This document shows, in pieces, positions 1,428 to 54,795 of a stretch of DNA of 64,000 nt; position 1 is the first letter of the stretch; the number at the start of each line of letters is the position of its first letter. The translations under genes and the position numbers were made by a program. Under the pieces are notes generated by a model that was not told the DNA's origin, did no database searches, and saw nothing but the letters and a program-made list of their open reading frames with translations. The DNA is taken from positions 34,534,001 to 34,598,000 of the forward strand of contig OX597824.1 of assembly GCA_951406725.2 (NCBI GenBank). Direction: 5' to 3'. This DNA is from Octopus vulgaris (taxonomy: Eukaryota).

Positions 1428-1459
<32 letters not shown>

Positions 1460-1462
1460 GTA

Positions 1463-1547
<85 letters not shown>

Positions 1548-1562
1548 GTATATATATATATA
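1262..1562. repeat. Compound (TATG)n/(TA)n/(CA)n microsatellite
   Basis: Directly visible. Confidence 0.95.
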
Positions 1563-2329
1563 CAGGAATTCTTCACATTAGTAGGTAATGCATTCCTAAA
1601 ACTTTGGCTGAAAACAAAATTTCATGTGTGTGTGTGTGTGTGTAAATCATCTAAGAGTCCATAAGTCAGGAAAAAATGCACTTGTATATTTGTCAACAGA
1701 GTGGGTATATTTATCCAAAGAGTACAGTATCATATATCCATTACAGCCAATTCTTATCAATCAGTTTCATGCTAGGGATTCAACAGAATCTTTAATAGCG
1801 GACACTTACCCAATGTACCACACAATTTGATACTGAACCCACAACCAAGTGGTTGAAATGCAAACTGTTTAACCACACAGCTACACATTTTCAAAAATAT
1901 TTTAATCTGTTTTTCAGTGTGCAAATCATTTCCTACTGTTTGTGGTTTTGCCATTTTAACAATGGTTAAACCGTCAGCAGTAATTTTTTTGTATTGTTTT
2001 TAATTCTGATGAATTGTAACTTAGATGATGTGGGGGACATTGAAAAAATGTTAAAAAGGAAGGGAGCAATAGTTTAAAAAAATTGAGTAGCATTGTTTGA
2101 GAAGACACTGTTCTTTGTTACAATTAATCATCACTATCATCTTATCTTATCTTCTTCCTGGCTACTAACACCCACCTTTATATAACACAGGGTAGCCATA
2201 TATTTTGTCTAAAGCAAGATTCCTGTACTTGTTTCTTTATCATACTCTAGCTTCTCAACACCATGCATAAACACCCCTCCCTCGTACTCCCTTCACATAT
2301 GCACACTTTGTCAAGTGGGGTTTTACTTT

Positions 2330-2551
2330 TACCTGTCTTGTAACTTACTAGGTAACCCCGTTAGTACCAGTGGTATGAAAATAAATCACCCAATTCACAC
2401 TGTAAAGTGGTTGGCATTAGGGAGGGCATCCAACCATAGAAACCATGCCAAAGCAAGCATTGGAGCTTGATGCAGCTCTGCAATTCACCAGATCCTGTCA
2501 AACCCTTCAACCCATGCCAGCATGGAAAATGAACATTAAACGACAATGATG
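2330..2551 (+). mobile_element. SINE family C fragment (ggttggcattaggaagggcatccag...catggaaaa..gacattaaa(gat)n)
   Basis: Same body and (GAT)n tail as copies at 3925-4096, 10052-10198, 12270-12460, 37090-37460, 42560-42695, 48380-49292, 56717-57250, 63116-63500. Confidence 0.7.
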
Positions 2552-2559
2552 GTGAAGTT

Positions 2560-3860
2560 TGAGATTTGGAAATGCTTTGTCAAAATTCTCAAAAGTAATC
2601 TACATAAATTGATATCAAAGGGGAGGAGAGTGGGAAGGGGTGTGCAGATCAGATATTTGTAGTAAGGCAGATGTATGAGAAGTTTTTGGCAAAAGAGAGG
2701 GATGTATATTGGGCCTTTATGGACATGGGAATAGGGATGCAATGTGACAGGTGTTGCAGGTGTATGGAGTAGATGGTAGATTGTTGAGAGCTGTACAGAG
2801 TTCCTATAAAGAAAGTAGGGTGTACGTTTGGGTGAGTGGTGAAGTTAGTGAGTAGTTTGATGTGAAAGTGGGGGTTAAGACAGTGTTGTGTGATGTTTCC
2901 GTGGCTGTTTGATCTATATATTGATGGTGTGGTGAGAGAGGTGAATGCTAGAACCTTTGGTAAGGGAGCCCAAATGGTAGGAGAAATTGCAGAGAAATTG
3001 CAGGTAAGTCAGTTGTTGTTTGCTGATGATACAGCACTGGTGGCAGATTCGGAAGAGCAACTGAGGAGAATGGTGGTAGAGTTTAGAAGAGTGTGTGAAA
3101 GGAGGAGACTGAAAGTGAATGTAGCTAAGAGTAAGGTGATGAGATGTTCAAGAGATGGAATAGCTGGTAGGGTGAATGCGAGTATAAATGGTGAGATGTT
3201 AGAGGAGGTGAGTGTTTTCGAGTATCTGGGATCCCATGTGATTGCAGATGGGGGAGTTGGCTGAGGAAGTGGGATATAGAGTGAGGGAGGAGAGTAACAT
3301 AGTTGGAGTTGTGAAAGATAAAAGGTTGAATATGAAAGTAAAAAGAGGTGTGTATGAGGGTGTGATTGTGTTGACAATGTTATATGGTGCAGAGACGTGG
3401 GGTTGAGAGAAGCAGAAAGAAGGTGACTAGATGTGTTTGAGATAAGATGGATGAGGGGTGGATGGTAAGGTGGGTGATGAAGGTAGAAATGGTAGGGAGC
3501 AAAACCTGAAGCAGACTTTGTTTTCTGTGGATGGAGGGAGTGAGGAAAGCTTTGGTGGCTAGAGGTGCAGGTGTGAGAAAGGCAAGCGGGTTTATAAACG
3601 ATAGGAAAGCTTGGAGAGTGTTTGTGGATGGATGAGTGAATTGATGTTGTTCAAAGGGGTATGAAACCAGCATGATGTGGCAGGGGTAAACCAGCATATG
3701 CTGTTGGGCCCCAGTGGTGATGTCGGAGGTTGCGTTCAATGCCTTTACCCAAGCATAGAACAGGGCTCACCTCTTTGAGCTGGGAAATGAATGGAATGCC
3801 TGGTGTGCGTCTTGTTGGGGCTACCCCTCGTATGGGGAATTTAGGCCTTGGTATATATAA
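2560..3860 (+). mobile_element. RTE-clade LINE 3' fragment (RT pseudogene + 3' UTR)
   Basis: Translation PWLFDLYIDGVVRE..LLFADDTALVADSEEQL..LKVNVAKSKVM..FEYLGS, with stops and frameshifts on both sides. Confidence 0.85.
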
Positions 3861-5893: not shown

Positions 5894-7822
5894 TTTTGCA
5901 ATCAGCTACAATATAGCTAAATGGATTTGAAACCAAATTCTACATTTTTATGAATTGTCAAACAAATTTCTGGTGTATTATTTTATCCTCTCTGCACTTG
6001 GAGATTAATGAGAATGAGTTGACCTCTTGATCTTTCTCTGGTCATGGAAGGGTCAAGACAGATAATTCCAGTGAATCTATTGTCCTCATTGACCTACTTT
6101 AATTAGCATTGATCTACTTTAAATACACAAGCAATTTAGCTATCTCTCTGTTTTTGGCTGGTTGCAGCCTGGGTAAGGAGTGAGCCTTCTTGCTATGTGT
6201 GTGAATGTATTATTTATCATTTCTATCTTTCTACATTCCTTTTATTCTGTCTTTCTCTAATAGTAACAGACATGAAACTGTCTTTCATATAGAATGAACT
6301 ACAGACCCACGGAATATATTTTACTGCAACAATTAATTATACGTCATTAATTATAATATATTGCAACAGCTAATATTATAATCAACTTAATACATGGCTG
6401 TCTTCATAATTCTTATTGTTCTGTTCTTTAATCAATTCTTCAATGCATCATTTTAATTTAAATCACTGTCGTTACATTTTAGTGACTGCCGACTCAAGAA
6501 CTCAAGCCTTCTAAACCAATTGCAATCTGTTGTTACAGGTAGCAGCTTTCTACCCCAGATTCAAGAATTACACACCTAAAACAGTTGCACTAATTTCATC
6601 CTCCTTGGCATTCTGTCAGTTGTGATGACGAGGGTTCCAGTTGATCCGATCAATGGAACAGTCTGCTCATGAAATTAACGTGCAAGTGGCTAAGCACTCC
6701 ACAGACACATGTACTCTTAATGTAGTTCTCAGGGAGATTCAGTTTGACACAGCCCTTTGAAAATACAGGTACAACAGAAATAAGAAGAGAGTGTGAGAGA
6801 AAGTTGTGAGAAAAGAGTATTGCAGGGTTCGCCACCACCCTAATTTCATCACAGGTTGATACACAGAAATTGTTACGTTTGACTTAAAGGAATTACAGCC
6901 TTCTCTTCAACCAAACATGCAATTTTCTATGATTGGAGTTGAAGCTTTTTAACAGTTAAATCCTGCTTTTAAAAACCAATGTGCACCTGTCTTAACATGA
7001 AATGCACAGACTCCAATTAGCTACAAGCCTCCAACTAATAAACAAAGCAACATGCACTCTGATTGAATTCCATGGTTCCATGCCAAAATCCCGCAGACAA
7101 CTTTTATCTGGCCACAACACAAATATTATCTACCAAGACAATGCAGCTAATTGCCATGCACTCCGCAGAATAGCCAAATTACATCCCTGCATATTTCTCC
7201 AGGACAGGACCAACAACTTAAACTGCAACTGAAACTGCAAATACAGAGAAATAACTGCTGTTCATGCAAACATCACTGGACTTATGGAAGCCCATAAACT
7301 CTACTTTTTCGACAGCCACACATTTTTCATCTTGAATCCCAAGGTACAAATCCTGCATCTTTCTGGCATTCTTCCACATATTTTGCATACATAAACTGTC
7401 AAGAATGTTTTTTCCCCTTTGCATGTACCTATTCTTTTCTTACATTTCAGCACTAGCTTTTTAGTAAAGGATGCTCTTCCCGTCAAGTTTGTTATTTGAT
7501 TTTTCTTTCCTTCGTTTAAACTATTTTGTACTGTTTACTATGCTGTCTGCATTGCAAACTTTTATTTGTTACACGTTAGCATGTTTATTCTGCGATGTCT
7601 CATTTTCCTTGAGAACTCATTTTCCATGAAGACTCAATTCCACAAAGAGATTCACATGCATTCATATTATTTTTATAATGTATTTTTCTTATTGGTTGCT
7701 TGTATTGCCCATTTCATGCATACATATTGTTTGATGTATTTTCATTGCATGATTTTCACAATGTTTTCTTTGCACCTTTCACAGATTTACTTATTTTTCC
7801 ACAGGTTGATCAGACTTTTCAC

Positions 7823-7873
<51 letters not shown>

Positions 7874-9162
7874 GTTCATATATGCATGCATACTTGCACA
7901 TAGTTACACACTCGCACCACAATATTGTGCCTTTATTGACATGCTTTTCCATGTTTGTACCTAGTATGTATGTTTGATTATGCTCTCTGCACCCTTGTTT
8001 CTAGACACAACATCACTCTGTAAGATCCTCAAGTTGGCCACAGTATAAAGACAAAAAGTTTGCCTGTCTTTCCCAATGCACCAGCAAGTCACTTGCCCTC
8101 AGGACCAGACTCACTTGGCCTCTCTACTGAGTGCCAGAGGCAGTTGGCTTCTGAACCTTTTTTTAAGGCACTTAACACAGCATGCACAGTTCTGCCTGAA
8201 AATTTTCAAATTATATCTACACTCTCTCACCCCAGTGCCTTTCACTGAAAGTATACAGCTTCACCTTTCTTTTGCATATGTATACACAATCCATTACTGA
8301 ATCGCATGCATGCACACTTAACACTGTCCAAAGCCAAAGTCCAGACTGTACTTTTTGCACGCAAAAAGATATTGAACTATTCAGACCCATTCAAATAGAT
8401 TTTTGTTCCATGTGCATCACCTCAGTTTCTTTCTCCTGATACCCATGATTTTTCTTGACCTGGCATCAGATCAGTCTATACCCTCACAATTTTGAACATT
8501 CTTCAATTTGTGCATAGTGCACATGCCTGCAATTTTTCCCAGTATTGATCCTAGGTCTTTGACAAATTATGTGGGAGGAAGAGTGATTTAGCAACCAGCT
8601 TACAGCATAGCTAAGTGGAGTCTTGAATCCACATTTTTATTAGTTGTCAAACAAATTTCTGGTCTATTGTCTTCTTCTCTCTGCTATTTGGAGATTAATG
8701 AGAATGAGTTGATCTCTTGATCTTTCTCTTGTTGCAGAAGGGTCAAGACAAATAATTCTGGTAGAATTTATTGTTCTCAGTTGATGTACTTTACTTAGCA
8801 AACCTAAAAACTCAAGCAATTTACCCATCTCTCTCTTTTTGGCTGGCCACAGCCTGGGTAAGGAATGAACTTTCTTACTATGCAAGTGAACATAGACTTC
8901 TTATCATTTGTGTCTTTCCGCATTCCCTTTATTCTGTCTTTCTCTAGTAGTAGTAGACTAGCTATCATACAGAATGGACCACAGATCCATGGAGTATAGT
9001 TTACTGCAACAATGTGTACTCACAACAATGTAAGGATATCATAAATTTTTGTAACAACCAATATTACAATCTGTTTGAAAAATGGTCATGTTCATAATTA
9101 ATAGTTTTGTTCTTTAATCATTTCTCAGGTACATCATTTTCATTTAAATCATTGTTGTTACA
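5894..9162 (+). mobile_element. Decayed Gypsy-type LTR retrotransposon (LTRs 5894-6476 and 8587-9162)
   Basis: Two diverged ~580-bp direct repeats ending in GTTACA; PBS-like ttttagtgactgccgac at 6477; polypurine tract gggaggaagagtga at 8573-8586; degenerate gag knuckle-like CKHHWTYG..RQPHIF near 7265. Confidence 0.6.
6601..6840 (-). mobile_element. SINE family D, 5'-truncated, inserted in the Gypsy element
   Basis: Matches the 3' half of 39321-39709; flanked by direct repeat TAATTTCATC (6591-6600 / 6841-6850). Confidence 0.8.
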
Positions 9163-11551: not shown

Positions 11552-12993
11552 CTGAAAATAATTTTTTCTGAGTCTAAGTAATTTTGATTTAATCTACAAA
11601 AAATTTATGTGCATGGTTATGGGCGGTGCACTGTCTTTGGTAAGATAACTGTAGGGATGAGATGAACCTGAAGGAAAGGGCTGTGACATCCGACTGAGGG
11701 GTTCCACCAGAATAGGAAGGCAGAGAAAGTGAAGGAAGCAAGACCAGGGTCGTCCTCTTTTCAGCCAGGGGCAGTGGTGGTGAATAGACATGAGTGGATG
11801 AGCAAGTGTGCAGGGATTGGTAGTAGCGGCTGCTATCGTTAGGTAAGATGGGTAGAGCATGTGTTTGGACTTAACACAGCTGGACAGCCAACGAGAGGTA
11901 GGTGAACCATATTTTATTCCCTGCATTACAGTTCCCTCATACCACAATAACAATAAGTACTTGCTACTTAAAATCAAGAAAGAATTGTTGAGCCATCAAC
12001 TAGATTCTAAAACCTTATCACATTCTCTTAGATAACAATGTTATAAAAATGGTAATTAAATTATTTAAAAATAAAGAATTGAACAATGGAAAATGAAAAG
12101 ACATTTTGAAAGATTTTGGAGTAGAATATGGTATTTTTTTTTTTAGATTAACATACAACAAAAGGAACCCATTCAAATTCCTTCTTTCGTATTCCCTAGC
12201 ATAAATCCACATCTCTCTTTACTGTACTCTCACTCAGTTAAAGGGGATCTTAGTTTAACGAGCTACCTAGTAACTTCCTGGTGCAGGTACTATGAAAAAA
12301 GCACTCAGTACACTTTGTAAAGTGACAGGCATTAGGAAGGGCATTCAATGCTAGAAACTAAGCCAAAGCTGACATTGGGGCCTGATGCAGTCCTTCGACC
12401 CATCCGGTCCTATCACACCATCCAACCCATACCAGCACAAAAGATGGATGTTAAATCCTAATAATGACAATTATGATGGTGACTTGAAACTTTATTTGAG
12501 AAAAACAAAAGGCATATGTTCAAGTACTATTTTGAGCTGAAAGTGACAGTATATATTTTTATGGATTCATATGGATACTCTTCCTGTCACCAATGCTCAC
12601 TTTTTTCTAAGTAAGCTGATATGTTCTCATGGCCAGACATGTTTTCACAGAAGATTGCAAATGAAGGACACTGCTTATATGATGGTTGTCTAAGTGGACT
12701 GGAGCAATGTGAAATGAAGTGTTTTGCTCAAAATCAAAATGCATTACCTGGTCCAGGAATTGAAACCATGATCTTGCAGTCATGATGCCATGCACCTTCA
12801 TTTTTCCATATTAAATTCAAGATGTATGATATGACATCTTTGGTGTCATATCATATATCCAGAGATTCTTATAGATTTGCAATCTCCACCCTGTAAAAAA
12901 GTTTCTACCCTTGTTATAAAGTAAGCTTAAAATTGTTTTATAAAATGAATTTTATATGCATTATTTACATTGTCCTCATCTTGTTTTGTTGTT

Positions 12994-13039
12994 AACACAA
13001 CGTTTTGGCTGATGTATTCTCCAGCTTTCATCAGGTGTC
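12994..13039 (-). ncRNA. Second (inverted) minimal hammerhead-like motif (degenerate)
   Basis: Reverse complement GACAC-CUGAUGA-A-AGCUG[loop]CAGCC-AAAA-CGUU-GUGUU. Confidence 0.55.
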
Positions 13040-13086
13040 TTGGGGAAATTTCGAACCTGGGTTCTCATTCGTAAGGTATTTTTCGA

Positions 13087-13124
<38 letters not shown>

Positions 13125-13266
13125 TCACTGCTTCGAATCGAATTCGGAATCGTAGGGTTAGTAGCCCGTGTTCTTAACCACTATGCTATATGCCTGAGCA
13201 AAAGGCATAGTGGTTAAGAGCACGGGCTACTAACCTCAAGATTCTGAGTTCAATTTCAAGCAGTGA

Positions 13267-13304
<38 letters not shown>

Positions 13305-13313
13305 TTTCCCCAA

Positions 13314-13359
13314 GACACCTGATGAAGGCTGGAGGATACATCAGCCAAAACGTTGTGTT
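13314..13359 (+). ncRNA. Minimal type I hammerhead ribozyme-like motif (degenerate)
   Basis: GACAC-CUGAUGA-A-GGCUG[loop]CAGCC-AAAA-CG-UU-GUGUU. Stems I and II and the palindromic ACGU stem III are present; core GAAA reads AAAA. Confidence 0.6.
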
Positions 13360-13801
13360 AACAACAAAACAAGATGAGGACAAATATCCGTCTAATGTAA
13401 ATAATGTACATTATTCCTCATCTCTTAAATATAGAACTGTGAATTTTATATGTTTAAATGACATTATAGGATATGTATAAATGGTATAGAAAATATGAAT
13501 CAGTTTGAAAAATATCTAACAATTGCTATGAAGTAAGAAGCAAAGAAACAGCCATTGTTAAAATATATAAAATGATAGAGACATTTAACTTTCAATAAAT
13601 CCCCATTCACTTGCAATAAATATATCTGAAATGATGATCAATTATTTTATTACTTCTGTTGATAAAATGTAGACACTTAACACGTTAATATAGAGCTCTG
13701 ATTGATGAACACATTCACAACAGCTAATAGCTAATTTATGTCTTGTAAACAAAATATCTGTCAAATAGTGACGGCTTCTAATAATGTGTCAACAGCATAT
13801 T

Positions 13802-21667: not shown

Positions 21668-24227
21668 CTGTGTTTGTCCCCCCAACATCGCTTGACAACC
21701 GATGGTGGTGTGTTTACGTTCCCTGTAACTTAGTAGTTCAGGAAAAGAGACTGATAGAATAAGTACTGGGCTTCCAAAGAATAAGCCCTGTGTTCGATTT
21801 GCTTAACTAAAGGTGGTGCTCCAGCATGTCCGCAGTCAAATAAATTGAAACAAGTAAAGGAGAGGAAGAGAAAGAGAATATATGAATATGTAAATATAAA
21901 TATATACACAAACACAGACACACACACACACACATATATAAGCCATGGGTTATGGTCTCTCTTGGCTTGCCGGGTCTTCTCAAGCACAGCATATTTCCAA
22001 AGGTCTCAGTCACTAAGCATTGCCTTGGTGAGGCCTAATGCTGGAAGACCTAATGGTCGAAGGTTGTGCTTCACCACCTCATCCGAGGTCCTCCTGGGTC
22101 TACCTCTTCCACAGATTCCCTCAACCGCTAGGGTGTGGCACCTTTTCACACAGCTATCCTCATCCATTCTCACCACATGACCATACCAGAACAGTCATCT
22201 CTCTTGCACACCACATCTGAAGCTTCTTAGGTCCAACTTTTCTCTCAAGGTACTTACACTCTATCAAGTATTCACACTGACATTACACATCCAGCGGAGC
22301 ATATTGGCTTCATTCCTTGCAAGCTTGCACATATGCTCAGCAGTTATGGCTCATGTTTCATTGTCATGTAGTATGGCTGTTCATACACATGCGTCATACA
22401 GTCTACCTTTTACTCTGAGCGAGAGACCCTTTGTCACCAGCAGAGGTAAGAGCTCTCTGAACTTTGCCTAGGCTATTCTTACTCTAGCAGTTACACTTTC
22501 AGCACACCTGCCCACGCTATTGACTTGCTCACCTAGGTAACGGAAGCTATCAACTATTTCTGGTTTTTCTCCCTGGAATGTGGCGGAAGTTGGTCTCTTC
22601 ACATCTTCAGTGTTTATTGCTCCAGAGCATCTGCCACATACAAAAACTATTTTCTTAGTTAGCCTTCCTTTGACATTGCTGCTCCTCTTATGTGTCCATA
22701 GCTTACACTTGGTGCATCTTATAGAGTTTCTACCTACGTCTTTTCTACAGATCGAGCAGGGCCATCTACCTGAAGGCGTTTGTGATTTTTCTACCTTCCT
22801 ACTTATTAGGACTTTGGTTTTAGCTAGGTTGACTCTAAGGCCCTTCGATTCTAGTCCTTGCTTCCACACCTGAAACTTCTACTCCAGTTCTGATAGTGAC
22901 TCAGCAATTAGAGCAAGGTCATCAGCATAGAGGAGCTCCCAGGGGCATCCTGTCTTGAATTCCTGTTATTGCTTGGAGGACTATGCTAAATAGGAGGGAG
23001 CTGAGGACTGAACCTTGGTGGACCCCTACCTCTACCCGGAATTCTTCACTGTACTCGTTGCCAACCCTCACCCTACTAGCAGTGTCCCTGTACATGGCTC
23101 GCACAGCTCTCACTAACCATTCATCTATCCCTAGTTTCCTCATTGACCACCAGATAAGGGATGTGGGGACCCTGTCAAAGGCTTTCACCATGTCAACGAA
23201 AGCCAGTTATAGGGGCTTATCTTTGGCTAGGTATTTCTCCTGCAGCTGCCTTACCAGGAATATAGCATCAGTGGTACTCTTCCCTGGAACGAACGCAAAC
23301 TGCATCTCATCTAAACTAACTCTCTCTCTAATTAGTTGGGCTATGACCCTCTCTGTAACCTTCATTACCTGATCCAACAGCTTGATACCTCTGTAATTAT
23401 TTGTATCTAGGGTGTCACCTTTACCTTTGTAGCAGTTGACTATTATGCTGCTGCACCAGTAATTGGGTATGACTCCTTCGTGTATCACCTGGTTAACTAT
23501 ACGGGTGACTAGGCTATAGCCGACACCGCCAGATATTTTGAGCATCTCTGCAGTGATTCCTGATGGGCCTGGGGCTTTCCCTGTCTTCATGCTTCTAATT
23601 GCCTCATCTACCAAGGAGCTCTCAACTTGGATAGCTGGTCCCTCTGTTGGGTTGACATTCAGCAGACTCTCTTTATCCCATTCATTTTCTTTATTGAGCA
23701 ACCTTTCATAGTGGCGTTTCCAAGCCTCTCTCTTTGCATCCTCATTTAGTGCACGTGAGCCATCATCCATGTGAACACATTTCTCTCCTACCACATCACA
23801 ATTCTCTCTCACACACTGTCTTGCAACACGAAATACCTCAAGTCTTTGGCAAATTTTTTCTTATCTGCTTCCCCTCTGGCTAAATAGACCTGTCTCCTAG
23901 CTTCCCTTTTGGCAGTCTGATACAATTCCCTGCTACCACCATTTTTCCAGTCCTTCCAAGCCTGTCTCTTTTCTCTAATAGCCCTGTCTACAACATTGTT
24001 ACATTTGGGTCGAGAGGGGATTTTGCACCAGCCACAAATCTGGTCATTTAACCTCTCAGCAGGTTAAATGTATTGTAGGCCAATGATCCTAATGTTTTAA
24101 TTTTCAAATTTAGTTAATGGAGTTTCTTCTACAAGAAAAATCATTATTTTATTTTTTTAATAAATATTGTTTAATTCTGTTTATATACTATTAATAAACT
24201 ATTAATATAGTTTATTAATGTACATTT

Positions 24228-24265
<38 letters not shown>

Positions 24266-27200
24266 CTTGGGATGGGATGCATGAAAATTTATTGTTATAT
24301 GTAGATATACATCTTATATATAGACATACACATACATTTTTTCATACATGTACATACATACATACATACATACATCAGTGGCATATGGTGATTGTTGTAT
24401 TGAGTGTACTGCCACACCCAGCACCACCAAATTTCATGCAGATGCATAACAAAAGTGTTCTATTAAGATTTGTGATTAAATTGAGTAAGGTTAATATTTA
24501 TAATGAATTTGTCATTTTGAATGGGTATGCAGCACACGCTTAGCACATCTGGATTATATGCCCCCTGACATACATACTTACATATGTACATGCATGCACA
24601 ATATTTTATGAAATGGGATTTACTTGATTTGGTTTGCAGTCATATATTTCATTTTCATGAAGGTAACAGAAAAAGTCTATAAGGTTACTCGAACTGTTAA
24701 AAACAGCAACCAAATGTCCCTAAAATCACAGTCCTAGATACTAATGAGCTCTACCTCTGCTTATAAGTTGACTTCATTATGATTACAACTGCAGTATATT
24801 TTCATTGTTAGTTACTAAATGTTTTAACTAAATTTAAATTCCATAGGAATAAAATATTAAAAAAAAATCTCTGTTTTTGTCTTTTCAGGAACCTTATTAT
24901 CTTTATCAGACAGATTGTAAGTATTTTAATTAAACTGTCTTTCAAATTAAAAAACTATATTAGAATCATTTTTATCCATGTTAATGCACCTTATTTCTTT
25001 TAGAGGCTTGAAAGAAATGTAAAATTTATCATTTTGCATTTTTCAATTATTTTACATCAGCAATCCAATCATAACCACCACCACAGAAACTCTCTTTGAG
25101 ATACTGAGCATTTGGATTGTCATCACTAATGTTGATGTAATGAACAATAGATCTGAAGATATTGTTGTGATTTTAGAGAGAAGAAAGTAGATGTGTGCAG
25201 GCTCAAAGTGTTAATAGGGAGGGAAGCTTCTGCCAGACTCTTCACAGGCAATGAACACTCGTAAAAATTCTTTTAGTTGAGTAACCACATGACTGTAGGT
25301 TGAGAATGTGTACTGCAATCGTAGAAATTGAAAAGAGTGGTTGAGGTAGTGAGAGTGTGTGACAGAATAAATTTAAAATTAGATGAGAAACAAAAGCAAT
25401 GGTTATATCTACTGAGACACCTCAGTCTGGATTGAGGGATGAATGAAAGAACTATTTCTGTGACATCCACTTGTCAAGGTTGGTGACTTTAATTTACGTG
25501 TTGGTACAAACATGGTAAAGTGGGCATAACAATGGTGATGACATTAGCAAATAGTGACTGACAGAAAATTCAACAAAATGTTTGTGCATGTGTGCAGGAC
25601 TGGATTCAACCCAAAGGGGACCTGGGGCACTTCAATTTCATTGGGCTCCTCAGAAACAAGACTTAAAATCAATGAAAATCACCAGATTTAAATCTCAAAA
25701 CCCATATATTGCCTGCAATTGAATTTGACAAGTCAGCAGAGTAAGTTTAAATGCATCTATTAATGCAAAATTTTGTCATCTAAACTAATTACAGCAAATA
25801 TTACCAACTTATTGCTATGTACTACTTCAATACCTACACAAAATCTTTCTTTCTGCATTTGGCATTCAAAAAATCTTTAACGAATTCTTCAAACTGTATT
25901 GTCTTTAGGACACTGCTCTCTCATTGTGGTCCTCAGGTAATTCTTTATCAGACCCAATTTACTAAATGACCTCTTTCCAGAGCAATTTGTGACTATTAAG
26001 CTCAAAAATATTTTAAGAGCTACATCAATATAAAGAAAGGTTTCAGCAAGCCCTTCATTATAGATTAAAAGTGCCTGCTGAGATGGGGTAAAACTTGAGC
26101 TTACAAAAAGCTACAAACTGTACAATTTCTTCTATGAACACCTCATTAAGATCACAAGGGAAAGCAGTGATAAGTTTCACAGCTTCAGATTTTATTTCTG
26201 CATCAGGTAAACTACCTAAGTCCACTGTGACTTTAAACTTGTCATGCCCTGATTGATAGGTTACCCAGCATTTTTGTAAGGCAACAGACAACTGATCTAA
26301 AATAATATTGAATGTTCTGTATCTCATCGTCCTCAATATCTCTGAGTGTATTTTCTCTTGCAGAAAGGACAACTGCTTCAAAGGCTGATGCTAGATTTAT
26401 ATCACGTTTATTTCTCTTCCTTGATCTATCTATTGTTGCTTTATACTCTGTGTTTCCACACATGTTCCTGGCATCAAGCTCCAATTCTTCATACCTATCT
26501 TGAAGCAATTTCAGAAAGCTTTCCAAAGAATCAATAAGATAAATCACTTCATTCAAATCAACATTAACTCCTTGAAAAACTTCATTTGTACTGTAAAACT
26601 GTACAAGAATTATATGCCAGATTTTAGCTATCAGAGCAGTTTCAAGACAATCAATTCTGTCTGCTTGTGTCTGAACTTCATATCTTGCTTCAGGTGTTTG
26701 TTCTAGATCATCTCTGAGTGTATTTTGGATGCAACTATGTCCATCAATGAGGGCTTCAGTAGCATCAGTTCTTGCTGACCAACATGTTTCTGACAGAGAC
26801 TTCAAAGTTAGCGCTCTTTTATTGCCTTGCAACAATTTCATTAAATTTGCCCGTCTGTGCATTGATGCAGAAAAAAAGGTGTATAACATTTGTGTGAAAC
26901 CAAAATAGTTAACAGCTTCGACACAGCACGAAGCAGCAGCTTGCCCGATAAGATTCAATGAATGAGCAACACATGGAATAAAAACTGCAACCAGATTCTT
27001 TTCTTTGAGTGTAGCTTGCATTCCTGTATAATGACCAAACATATTACTGGCATTGTCATAGGACTCCCCTGCAGTCTTCAAAATTTATACCCTATTTCTT
27101 TTTAGGAATTCTGAGAGAGGTGTAGCCAGTACTTCCACTTTGTGGGAACCAGTTTGCAGGAAAGTTAAAAACCATTCTACCAGAAATAACATAACACACA

Positions 27201-54000: not shown

Positions 54001-54795
54001 AAAGAAATTCAGTCCTTTAATTCTAGTATATTGTTGATATTTTATTATTGATTGTTTGAATTTATATTTTCAGGAACAGTCCAAGAGAAAAGAGGGCTGA
54101 TATTTTATACAGAGGACCATTCTTACCACTGTGAAGCCATTGATAAGTTTATATCTTTCATGAATAAGAGTAAATGTAAACTAGAAGTTGCTGCTCGGCT
54201 AGTGAAAGGTGGTGATCCATTAAGACTGAGTTTGGAAATTCAAAAGTCTGATTTTATAATTCTTGTTTACTCCAAAGCTCTTCACAAAAGAATTCAGGCT
54301 TGGAAAAGCAACCAAGATTACATAAATTTTTTAAAAGAGGATAACTCAGCACTTTTGACAGTTTCCCTTCTCAAGGAACTTAAAGCAAGCAAAAAACTTA
54401 TCATTTGTAAGTTTCCTCAGGCACCAAACTCTGGTATCAGCAGTGAATTTCCTTCAGTTAAGTGTTACACTCTTACAAAAGAATTGAACTTGCTTATTCA
54501 ACAAATCCATAGAACAGGGGTGGATCAAGATCTCGCTATTCTTGTCAAAAGTAATAAACTCAATCATAAATTTAACTCTTTGACAAACACAATCAAGAAT
54601 GCTGCCACATTTGAAGAAAATAGTTCCTATTGGTTTGAAGACAAATATATTTGCCCCAAGAAAATGGAGTCTTTAAATGAAATGCCTGATTACACTGAAA
54701 AGTTTCTTGTCGATGGATGTGAACATAGTATTTATTCCATCCCTATAAGTTACATGTTTGAACAGATAAATGTAGACAATGACACAATTGCTTAA
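18540..54795 (+). CDS. IL17R: IL-17 receptor-like / SEFIR-domain type I membrane protein, 10 coding exons: 18540-18620, 24889-24916, 30442-30570, 31153-31268, 32459-32576, 33843-34006, 34557-34616, 36681-36789, 40140-40304, 54074-54795 (563 aa)
   Basis: All introns are GT-AG with compatible phases (0,1,1,0,1,0,0,1,1), giving an uninterrupted 1692-nt frame. Signal peptide [21 protein letters not shown]; FnIII-like motifs [44 protein letters not shown]; [26 protein letters not shown]; SEFIR-like [37 protein letters not shown]; post-SEFIR motif [12 protein letters not shown]. Orthology to RA versus RD is not resolved, and extra small exons in long introns cannot be excluded. Confidence 0.88.
19770..20306. 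repeat. Compound (TA)n/(CA)n/(TATATGCA)n microsatellite block
   Basis: Directly visible. Confidence 0.93.
20307..21353 (-). mobile_element. Non-autonomous Helitron (intron 1)
   Basis: Minus strand A|TCTATATATATAAAAG start; end ..ccacgcatagtggggg..CTAG|T; no TSD. Confidence 0.65.
21456..21858 (+). mobile_element. SINE family A, full length
   Basis: Head ggcataggagtggctgtgtggtaag, B-box-like ggttcattccc, family tail. Confidence 0.9.
21940..24064 (-). mobile_element. RTE-clade LINE ORF2 fragment (RT pseudogene with PHD-like insertion)
   Basis: [64 protein letters not shown] motifs, broken by frameshifts and stops. Confidence 0.92.
24889..24916 (+). CDS. IL17R-like exon 2, 28-nt microexon (EPYYLYQTD)
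   Basis: Strong acceptor ctgtttttgtcttttcag and donor GTAAGT. Required to convert phase 0 to phase 1 between exons 1 and 3. Confidence 0.72.
25595..28932 (-). mobile_element. Full-length decayed hAT DNA transposon (ZMYM1-like/DUF4371-type transposase pseudogene) in intron 2
   Basis: TIRs CAGGACTGGATT / CAGGGCCAGATT; 8-bp flanks CATGTGTG / TGTGTGTG. Transposase motifs [39 protein letters not shown] and a C-terminal dimerisation region, with many stops and frameshifts. Confidence 0.88.
30442..30570 (+). CDS. IL17R-like exon 3 ([43 protein letters not shown])
   Basis: Acceptor tgtttcag, donor GTAAGA, open frame. Confidence 0.8.
31153..31268 (+). CDS. IL17R-like exon 4 ([39 protein letters not shown])
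   Basis: Acceptor ttttaatag, donor GTGAGT. LKGF..E..C motif typical of the first IL-17R FnIII domain. Confidence 0.85.
32459..32576 (+). CDS. IL17R-like exon 5 ([39 protein letters not shown])
   Basis: Acceptor atttgcag, donor GTAAGG; VxxHPLP motif. Confidence 0.8.
33843..34006 (+). CDS. IL17R-like exon 6 ([55 protein letters not shown])
   Basis: Acceptor ttttcctttacttttgcag, donor AAG/GTTTGT; C..W..VxF..P..Y pattern of the second FnIII domain. Confidence 0.82.
34557..34616 (+). CDS. IL17R-like exon 7 ([20 protein letters not shown])
   Basis: Acceptor tcttcttcag, donor GTAAGT; FxxLxPGxY FnIII motif. Confidence 0.82.
34641..35052 (-). mobile_element. SINE family A, full length, ~25 bp downstream of exon 7 donor
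   Basis: Family A sequence; short flanking repeat TATTGGT. Confidence 0.9.
35150..35465 (-). mobile_element. RTE LINE fragment (endonuclease-RT linker)
   Basis: Similar to 23850-24060 and 40760-41050 (TWWWN-type region). Confidence 0.6.
36681..36789 (+). CDS. IL17R-like exon 8 ([36 protein letters not shown])
   Basis: Acceptor ttttcttttttaaag, donor GTAAGC; Cys-rich membrane-proximal segment. Confidence 0.82.
38150..38500 (-). mobile_element. Small Helitron derivative with RepHel remnant
   Basis: Translation [20 protein letters not shown] resembles the Helitron RepHel TLxEA..PxxLRxLFA motif; 3' hairpin gcttaaaagcta..tagcttttaagc. Confidence 0.55.
38504..38722 (+). mobile_element. SINE family B
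   Basis: Head ggtggtgagctggcagaatc and family body. Confidence 0.8.
38760..39145 (+). mobile_element. Helitron-like 5' fragment nested in an older element
   Basis: A|TCTATTATATAAAA start followed by (GTCT)n/(GT)n, as in 418-802. Confidence 0.5.
39321..39709 (+). mobile_element. SINE family D, full length (tRNA-derived head)
   Basis: A-box tggcccagtgg, B-box gtttcgattcc; 14-bp TSD CACATCATCTCTCT at 39307-39320 and 39710-39723. Confidence 0.9.
40140..40304 (+). CDS. IL17R-like exon 9 (Ser/Thr/Pro stalk + transmembrane helix)
   Basis: Acceptor tattttattttctag, donor GTGAGT; 24-residue hydrophobic helix followed by K/R. Confidence 0.85.
40760..41900 (-). mobile_element. RTE LINE fragment, AP-endonuclease region
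   Basis: [46 protein letters not shown] motifs with disruptions. Confidence 0.85.
43330..43955 (-). mobile_element. Older RTE LINE fragment
   Basis: Diverged homology to 40760-41300 (IDYIL, QHRL, WKL motifs). Confidence 0.6.
44506..44751. mobile_element. hAT-Charlie-like MITE
   Basis: TIRs CAGTAGTTCCCAACC / ggctgagagtcactt; 8-bp TSD GTGTAGGC / GTCTAGGC. Confidence 0.7.
45264..45665 (+). mobile_element. SINE family A, full length
   Basis: Family A sequence. Confidence 0.9.
47753..48293 (-). mobile_element. CR1-clade LINE 3' end
   Basis: [39 protein letters not shown]-terminal motif plus (ATT)n tail. A second 3' fragment lies at 58520-58762. Confidence 0.85.
48380..49115. repeat. GC-rich ~60-bp minisatellite (alternating A/B units, ~120-bp higher-order period) inside a family C SINE
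   Basis: About 12 copies of ..ggcccc(c)gtg..ggtg(g/a)cacgtaaaagcacc(a/g)tccgttcgtg..ttgccagc; joins the SINE C tail at 49120-49292. Confidence 0.93.
49978..50305 (+). mobile_element. SINE related to family D
   Basis: tRNA-like head tggcttagtgg..gagttcaattcc; 3' body shared with 39321-39709. Confidence 0.75.
50488..50881 (-). mobile_element. SINE family A, full length
   Basis: Family A sequence. Confidence 0.9.
51560..52310 (-). mobile_element. Mariner (Mos1/SETMAR-like) transposase relic
   Basis: Translation [26 protein letters not shown] resembles mariner HTH1; degraded [10 protein letters not shown]-like motif near 51785-51815. Confidence 0.65.
52320..52970 (+). mobile_element. Probable 5' UTR / start of an RTE-like LINE
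   Basis: GC-richer structured segment with ggcaaccctcctaggagagggtaactctgacttcaaacc; recognised by pattern only. Confidence 0.35.
54074..54795 (+). CDS. IL17R-like terminal exon 10 (SEFIR domain + C-terminal extension)
   Basis: Acceptor ttatattttcag, 240 codons to TAA at 54793-54795; SEFIR-like motifs and a WFE tail motif. Confidence 0.9.

Follow-up and report, generated by a model that had tools for sequence, protein, structure and literature searches.

A truncated head-to-head pair of Penelope terminal repeats with a tRNA-like head and a hammerhead motif in the genome of Octopus vulgaris

A 481-bp insertion in the genome of Octopus vulgaris is almost certainly a truncated and inverted pair of Penelope terminal repeats (pLTRs). 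In the reading favored here, held with somewhat better than even confidence, the two 5'-truncated pLTRs are joined head to head and derive from an autonomous element of the Penelope/Poseidon type, whose tRNA-like head probably drives RNA polymerase III (Pol III) transcription of the element, including its open reading frame (ORF). The insertion is situated in a stretch of 64,000 nucleotides of contig OX597824.1 (positions 34,534,001 to 34,598,000), called the window below, in which no second copy of the insert was found.

The initial annotation of the window described a single insertion of this length with a perfect 13-bp target-site duplication (TSD), and the exact coordinates bear this out (Table 1). 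The insert is built from two head-to-head arms, each having a tRNA-like head, an (AAT)n tract and a minimal type I hammerhead. The inverted identity between the arms is 98% over 82 nt for the hammerhead and body, and 88% over 108 nt for the heads and (AAT)n tracts. The inverted repeats are as first described, but the two arms are unequal. About 36 nt of the spacer, including the ORF start codon, have been lost from the right arm, whose head begins at +9, while the left arm retains the spacer and has a short deletion near its 3' end. Seven filler bases separate the two heads. An extension of the right arm, originally put at about 30 bp, measures 31 nt and is confined to that arm; it is called the tail below. 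The window copy is a decayed insertion. Both of its hammerhead arms have the same rare changes, namely G12-to-A, a loop change and an extra A in the body, and the heads are 14% different. These shared changes could have come either from a mutated source or from gene conversion. G12-to-A occurs in both arms in 2 of 50 pairs.

Table 1. Organization of the insertion, in window coordinates
Feature	Positions	Strand	Basis
Left TSD, 13 bp	12946..12958	+	Identity with 13440-13452
Left arm 3' pLTR body; tail-less end where the tail would begin; short internal deletion	12959..12993	-	Arm alignment; 35/45 inverted arms stop 25-35 nt before the tail end
Left minimal type I hammerhead; G10.1-to-A, G12-to-A; predicted cut after 12999	12994..13039	-	Motif match and alignment
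Left spacer with ORF ATG 13068-13066; frame open through the hammerhead	13040..13087	-	Sequence and translation; RT ORF of L298 opens at the same ATG
Left (AAT)n tract	13088..13120	-	Sequence
Left tRNA-like head, -1 to +75; A box still equal to consensus, B box decayed	13121..13196	-	Sequence and family alignment
Filler at the head-to-head junction, 7 nt	13197..13203	.	Sequence
Right tRNA-like head, +9 to +75, 5'-truncated within the A box	13204..13270	+	Sequence and family alignment
Right (AAT)10 and remaining spacer; ~36 nt including the start codon absent	13271..13313	+	Sequence and family alignment
Right minimal type I hammerhead; G12-to-A; predicted cut after 13354	13314..13359	+	Motif match and alignment
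Right pLTR 3' body; encodes N-terminal ORF residues in the full element	13360..13408	+	Family alignment, translation
31-nt Penelope tail, right arm only; ORF continues from the tail in tandem copies	13409..13439	+	Genome matches, tandem loci
Right TSD; contains the first T4 run (13444) downstream of the right arm	13440..13452	+	Identity with left TSD

The insertion belongs to a large family, as had been supposed. The exact 31-nt tail has 3054 matches in the octopus genome (G000) and its reversed control has none. A DNA search of the same genome returned 2147 candidates, 40 of which were scored, at 93-96%. Seventy tail-anchored loci were drawn in coordinate order from the tail matches on one contig (C1). 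An inverted arm is present in 45 of them, and in 35 of these 45 it stops 25-35 nt before the end of the tail. ORF sequence is carried by 10 of the 70. Among the 36 insertions that have both ends clear and no ORF after them, 28 are flanked by a TSD (score of at least 8, one being an uninformative TA repeat), mostly of 11-14 bp, compared with 2.3% of mismatched flank pairs. The TSDs that the initial annotation proposed to look for in other copies are thus present. Inverted copies, one-sided tails of 30-40 bp and TSDs are known footprints of Penelope insertion (PMC8557442, PMC3846280); what is out of the ordinary is the presence in the pLTR of a tRNA-type head with A and B boxes.

The head-to-head junctions differ from copy to copy, and many of them read as microhomology or as a short fold-back at a GCCC/GGGC hairpin. 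For this reason the palindrome is not the mobile unit for which it had been taken. Copying of the palindrome as a unit is ruled out by the varying junctions and by the divergence of the arms, which is 6.5% within loci versus 6.6% between loci. The two arms of one insertion have a common loop allele in 40 of 47 pairs, where 28.2 were expected, and there is a small excess of private changes shared by arm pairs (12 versus 5.2). Both arms of an insertion therefore appear to come from one source and to have since diverged like unrelated arms. Two further features of the tail were observed. A solo 30-nt tail of the family lies within another Penelope copy (L064:6625-6654), an extreme truncation, and at L161-L190 the tail is preceded by one to four copies of a 9-nt unit, with the reading frame preserved.

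Each arm is the pLTR of an autonomous Penelope/Poseidon-type element that is 2.65 kb long and has an ORF of about 835 residues. The parts of the element follow one another in the order ORF end, 33 nt, head, (AAT)n, ATG, hammerhead, body, tail and rest of the ORF. The first leads were reads extending upstream of the head and one locus (L018) where a GIY-YIG-type ORF end precedes the head. When the genome was searched with ORF-end DNA, the head was found about 33 nt past the ORF stop in 30 of 30 loci. This is the autonomous Penelope ORF sharing the 3' arm that the initial annotation suggested looking for. A search with the RT domain gave 20 loci, of which 13 have the head downstream and one more has the hammerhead and body. 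In the 30 loci of a search with ORF-start DNA, the tail directly precedes the ORF body in 21, a full head-to-ORF tandem is seen in 5, three of them preceded by another ORF end, and no repeat sequence precedes the ORF start in 7.

The pLTR is also part of the coding sequence, its 3' 154 nt encoding the N-terminus of the RT protein. At one locus (L298), 137 codons are free of stops from the spacer ATG through the hammerhead, body and tail into the ORF, and this N-terminal frame is 46% identical (E 2e-28) to a full-length homologue of 847 residues from another record. The RT domain is recognized by Pfam as RVT_1, and the RT and GIY-YIG-type motifs align with full-length homologues. The GIY-YIG-type C-terminus has 2980 homologues; the Pfam GIY-YIG profile gave no score on the family protein. 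The single frame of about 835 residues is a composite inferred from many broken copies, there being no intact ORF and the longest stop-free frame among 20 loci having 569 residues. The extra Zn-finger found between RT and EN in Neptune/Nematis is absent from the family and its homologues and is present in a family of this genome that encodes 781 residues. The pLTRs form partial tandems and encode the ORF start, as in Penelope/Poseidon elements, and it is on domain order and motifs that the family is assigned to this clade. Searches for DNA of relatives in other species gave 8 distant metagenome loci, at 34-42% identity and with no visible head, nothing related in viral contigs, and one weak prokaryotic match.

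Three other Penelope-like (PLE) families were rejected as partners of the repeat. The young Neptune-type family of 781 residues, reached via the Pfam GIY-YIG profile, differs at its 3' end and has its insertions in TA repeats. An old Penelope family lies beside the solo tail in L064, and in its other copies the tail is attached in 0 of 29. A young Penelope family of 717 residues shares the 3' end as its own terminus in 0 of 50 loci, one of which held an unrelated neighboring copy. Some of these families have features of their own. The Neptune-type PLE (L061-L068; L064:81-1517, 1439-3781) has an upstream frame of about 480 residues that overlaps the RT/EN ORF, two ORFs being unusual for a PLE, and a variant hammerhead-like motif at its 3' end. 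The 717-residue family (L141-L160) has many intact ORFs, often in head-to-head coding pairs. An old Penelope family (L081-L110, about 2220-2500 in ORF orientation) has a hammerhead-like motif with a very long stem II region. Short hammerhead-like motifs also occur at L147:709 and 6418, L153:5854 and L155:329, in other sequence families with unrelated flanks.

The initial annotation read the unit as a non-coding, SINE-like parasite mobilized by a Penelope RT. The Penelope machinery of that model stands, but the unit is the coding pLTR of the element itself. ORF-linked and unlinked repeats (56 heads and 42 3' modules linked, against 100 and 177 unlinked) have no diagnostic differences and form no separate subfamily, 3 of about 240 positions differing at nominal p <0.01. 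Of 40 heads, 33 lead into the Penelope 3' module and 7 are broken off, none being attached to another body, so that the head is not a free SINE. The unit moreover includes the start of the ORF, and its open frame is homologous to a protein of another species. A tRNA-derived SINE would be non-coding and would share only its 3' end with its partner, whereas here the whole unit is the pLTR of the partner. Nor do the copies behave as retrozymes, being dispersed, inverted and tied to a coding element. It is accordingly very unlikely that the units form a SINE or retrozyme family of their own that bears a Pol III head and a hammerhead, parasitizes the Penelope RT and has solo units as source genes. 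As a separate non-coding family this model already fails, and its weaker form is the re-amplification of solo pLTRs in trans. The low number of tail-anchored loci with ORF sequence is in its favor. A solo unit has the promoter, both sites at which reverse transcription would start and no internal run of four T residues (T4), and its transcript would end in the flank. Furthermore, the schistosome Sm-alpha is a tRNA-derived SINE bearing a hammerhead (PMC6765202, PMC2770079), and pLTRs alone can mobilize sequence in trans (PMC3846280).

The window hammerheads have a 5-bp stem I, CUGAUGA, one bulged A, a 5-bp stem II and a palindromic ACGU stem III, with cleavage predicted after GUU. Neither core is intact, AAAA replacing GAAA in both. 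The majority sequence of the family has the features of a minimal type I hammerhead (CUGANGA..GAAA..UH, stems I and II, a bulge after A9, G10.1-C11.1 and a palindromic stem III), and the GAAA looked for in the family consensus is present in the majority of 49 arms, which has an intact core. Individual copies often keep it as well. The CUGAUGA..GAAA core is intact in 117 of 192 arms that span the motif, and G12-to-A, a CpG site, is found in 31 of them. Core positions are conserved no better than the rest (0.951 versus 0.946). The covariation expected of stems I and II did not materialize within the family, as 97.9% of cells are paired with 0 compensatory changes (28 distinct rows). These properties are as expected of copies that decay neutrally; their divergence is about 3.5% at non-CpG sites. 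The peptide encoded by the ribozyme is kept in the distant 847-residue homologue. Minimum-energy folding recovered stems I and II and not the catalytic dimer, and no RNA read ends were found at the predicted cleavage site in the libraries, which are fragmented. The proposed check with Rfam failed to score either a tRNA or a hammerhead, at E up to 10, on the window stretch and 7 other copies, and ARAGORN made no tRNA call for the window head or the family head. The tRNA and hammerhead assignments rest on motif matches and alignment.

The head of the family has A and B boxes that match the consensus and have tRNA spacing, in a cloverleaf that has decayed. It aligns best with tRNA-Arg(TCG) (z 8.2) among 30 tRNA loci of 6 amino-acid types, a sample that has Asn, Gln, Ser and His outside it. 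The tRNA-like head with its two boxes was thus correctly recognized at the outset, and, being common to the whole family, it was not inserted in this one copy only.

Most copies stop at a 5' wall near the start of the head. Of the 56 arms reaching +25, 42 end within -20 to +25, and 4 of 60 end at +26 to +75. In a set of 65 arms, the ends are spread over -7 to +10, 12 of them at -7 or -8, and the interval from -9 to -25 is empty. Of 40 copies in an independent set, 35 start at 0 to -7 (11 of them at -7), none at -8 to -45, and 5 continue into the ORF end. Exact patterns placed 40 nt apart have 2521 genome-wide matches at the head start and 777 just upstream. Exit from the element at -7 is also found in reads of two RNA runs and in contigs under two other species labels. 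The wall reads as the start of an RNA near position -6. It coincides at -7 with a 12-bp imperfect palindrome, and 6 of 11 junctions at -7 in the 65-arm set are palindromic; part of the accumulation at -7 may be microhomology.

Alternatively, the wall might not be a transcription start at all. The template would then be host or upstream read-through RNA, and a GCCC/GGGC hairpin at -7 to +5 would trigger fold-back or template switching, as many junctions indeed read. Palindromes at the 5' ends of pLTRs, and self-priming, have been described in Adineta elements (PMC3846280). However, a hairpin of 5 bp would have to stop about 85% of the cDNAs that had passed the 75-nt tRNA-like structure nearly without loss, and the ends, spread over -7 to +10 with an empty stretch from -9 to -25, are those expected of run-off at an RNA end. 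This explanation is regarded as highly improbable.

Transcription of the coding element by Pol III is likely, as judged from its sequence. The sense strand of the 2655-nt majority unit, which contains one known 1-nt error near 660-710, has 0 T4 runs where 4.7 are expected. The probability of having none is 0.012 in a base shuffle, 0.087 under a dinucleotide model and 0.036 in a synonymous ORF shuffle, and the statistics are modest. Runs of three T residues are near expectation (13 versus 16.7). All of 9 control PLE ORFs have T4 runs, 2-16 each and mostly above expectation; 16 and 9 were counted in the genome's two other intact PLE ORFs, and 2-9 in 7 distant relatives. The range in further control ORFs is 1-8, and 3 and 1 occur in two individual decayed family copies. 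An absence of T4 runs would be predicted if Pol III transcribed the whole element. The Phe content of the protein is low, 2.4%, compared with 2.2-3.2% in the close homologues (P0001-P0023) and 4.7 and 6.3% in two other PLE families.

The same element might instead be transcribed by Pol II, using an initiator at -6 and a TATA box located where the ORF stops. In that case the tRNA-like head would be a captured passenger or give short side transcripts, and the lack of T4 would be due to chance or be a by-product of the low Phe content, which the close homologues also have. Such an arrangement is unlikely, if still a serious contender. A TATAA is situated at -34, 28 nt before the 5' wall, which fits Pol II in the manner of the Adineta Pen2a pLTR with its TATA plus Inr (PMC3846280), the P values for T4 are only 0.01-0.09, and a capped RNA accounts for translation. 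That last point counts against Pol III, which leaves unexplained how an uncapped RNA, with a 2-codon upstream ORF preceding the main ORF start, is translated. Such RNAs are also believed to be restricted to about 1.3 kb by the processivity of Pol III (PMC10886601). On the other hand, the A and B boxes have stayed at consensus with tRNA spacing despite the decay of the cloverleaf, the Pol II start would fall exactly where a tRNA-type promoter places it, and the control ORFs do have T4 runs. Three raw RNA runs contain 6080-8148 family reads each, in about equal numbers in both orientations, with no strand bias and no accumulation of starts or ends. This is expected of copies inside host transcripts and so has no bearing on the polymerase. 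Among the indexed sequences that contain the family, none is listed as RNA. At L025:1363-1637, several T-to-C changes are present at 10-30% in RNA reads and at <1% in contigs of another run, a pattern that A-to-I editing of a hairpin would give, but other types of change behave likewise.

Under the preferred reading, in which the head promotes Pol III transcription of the coding element, the RNA would start about 6 nt upstream of the head and, lacking a terminator, would run through the next ORF and pLTR. By analogy with Poseidon_Ac (PAc) of the green anole, the element protein would nick both target strands and reverse transcription would start inside the RNA at two sites 31 nt apart, the end and the start of the tail, giving one arm with a tail and one without. 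The tail starts and ends 123 and 154 nt after the ATG, a geometry that matches PAc. Priming in the 5' pLTR of the transcript would at once give a SINE-like cDNA of about 275 nt by run-off at the RNA 5' end, and it is proposed that short copies outnumber coding ones for this reason. Microhomology, or fold-back at the GCCC/GGGC hairpin where the RNA starts, would then link the two cDNAs head to head. The hammerhead might cut only as a dimer or with the help of the protein, and its cleavage is likely to be dispensable for insertion.

The element resembles PAc in many respects. Both have a single ORF, with an RT together with a GIY-YIG domain at the C-terminus, that starts in the pLTR, a hammerhead cut just after the start codon, a tail between two internal RT start sites within the ORF start, and AT-rich targets (PMC11167929). 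In PAc, the ORF begins at the hammerhead, and the two positions within the RNA at which reverse transcription is initiated delimit the tail. The two target strands are each cut and extended, a dimer is predicted for the protein, and hammerhead cleavage needs the protein and is dispensable for insertion (PMC11167929). The octopus element differs in that its ATG lies 34 nt before the catalytic core and the cut 70 nt after the ATG; moreover, the account of the PAc pLTR consulted here describes no tRNA-like head or (AAT)n (PMC11167929). Pen2a_Av of Adineta vaga is similar too, with an ORF of 842 residues between pLTRs of about 220 bp, an adjacent inverted pLTR, a one-sided tail of 31 bp and a TSD of 9-10 bp (PMC3846280). 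Its pLTR encodes the first residues and has a 5' palindrome and a TATA-like box (PMC3846280). Unlike the octopus head, its promoter was read as TATA plus Inr, that is Pol II, and the term tRNA is absent from the text of that paper (PMC3846280).

The family hammerhead is of the minimal type I known from metazoan PLEs. It has no loop 3, a palindromic 15.2-16.2, an extra base between 9 and 10.1, G10.1-C11.1 and a short stem I, and such motifs are expected to function as dimers with low activity (PMC4209133). It differs from them in its stem II of 5-6 bp, the GUU cut triplet and the loss of G12 in both window copies (PMC4209133). A tRNA-derived Pol III promoter beside a hammerhead in an abundant retroposon is found in Sm-alpha and Sj-alpha of Schistosoma, but these are non-coding tandem repeats, whereas the octopus unit is a coding Penelope pLTR with a minimal hammerhead, inverted insertion and a tail (PMC6765202, PMC2770079). 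The TRIMp3 elements Cassandra, Helenus and Ajax likewise have a Pol III promoter derived from a small RNA within the terminal repeat (PMC10886601). Those LTR elements are non-autonomous and no longer than about 1.3 kb, in contrast to the autonomous 2.65-kb PLE with an ORF described here (PMC10886601). The literature searched, beyond whose scope lay subscription papers, Repbase and Dfam, contains no report of a tRNA-type promoter in a Penelope pLTR. In a 2026 annotation of octopus repeats, the word ribozyme does not occur in the text, nor hammerhead in one supplement (PMC13282606). The octopus element OR2 is a CORE SINE (PMC4758252).

The window contains a few other features. An open frame of 247 residues at 54052-54795 (+) has a SEFIR domain (Pfam PF08357, E 7.7e-6) and is probably an exon of an IL-17-receptor-like host gene. 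The frames at 2866-3264 (+), 23207-23860 (-) and 26242-27084 (-) comprise two fragments of LINE-type RT (RVT_1) and a frame of 280 residues that has no Pfam match, which we take to resemble a piece of a hAT transposase.

Pol III promoters are known from non-coding SINEs and TRIMs, the length of which is thought to be capped by Pol III (PMC10886601). A coding element read by Pol III would be unusual among protein-encoding elements and would raise the questions of how an uncapped RNA is translated and what role the hammerhead has. It would also show that terminal repeats of Penelope elements can be among the abundant "SINEs" of repeat libraries. If Pol II is used, the finding is a modest variant, a Penelope family with a captured tRNA-like piece. 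A bolder form of the Pol III proposal, with a little less than an even chance of being correct, is that an autonomous coding retrotransposon has swapped its promoter for a tRNA-derived Pol III one and purged the terminators from its 2.5-kb ORF, so that one transcript gives both the RT/endonuclease and, by internal priming in the 5' repeat, SINE-like copies. A Penelope element would in this way lead directly to a SINE, with thousands of SINE-like copies. The copies, numbering in the thousands, also locate both internal RT start sites and the 5' end of the RNA with single-base precision, which makes the origin of head-to-head Penelope insertions testable.
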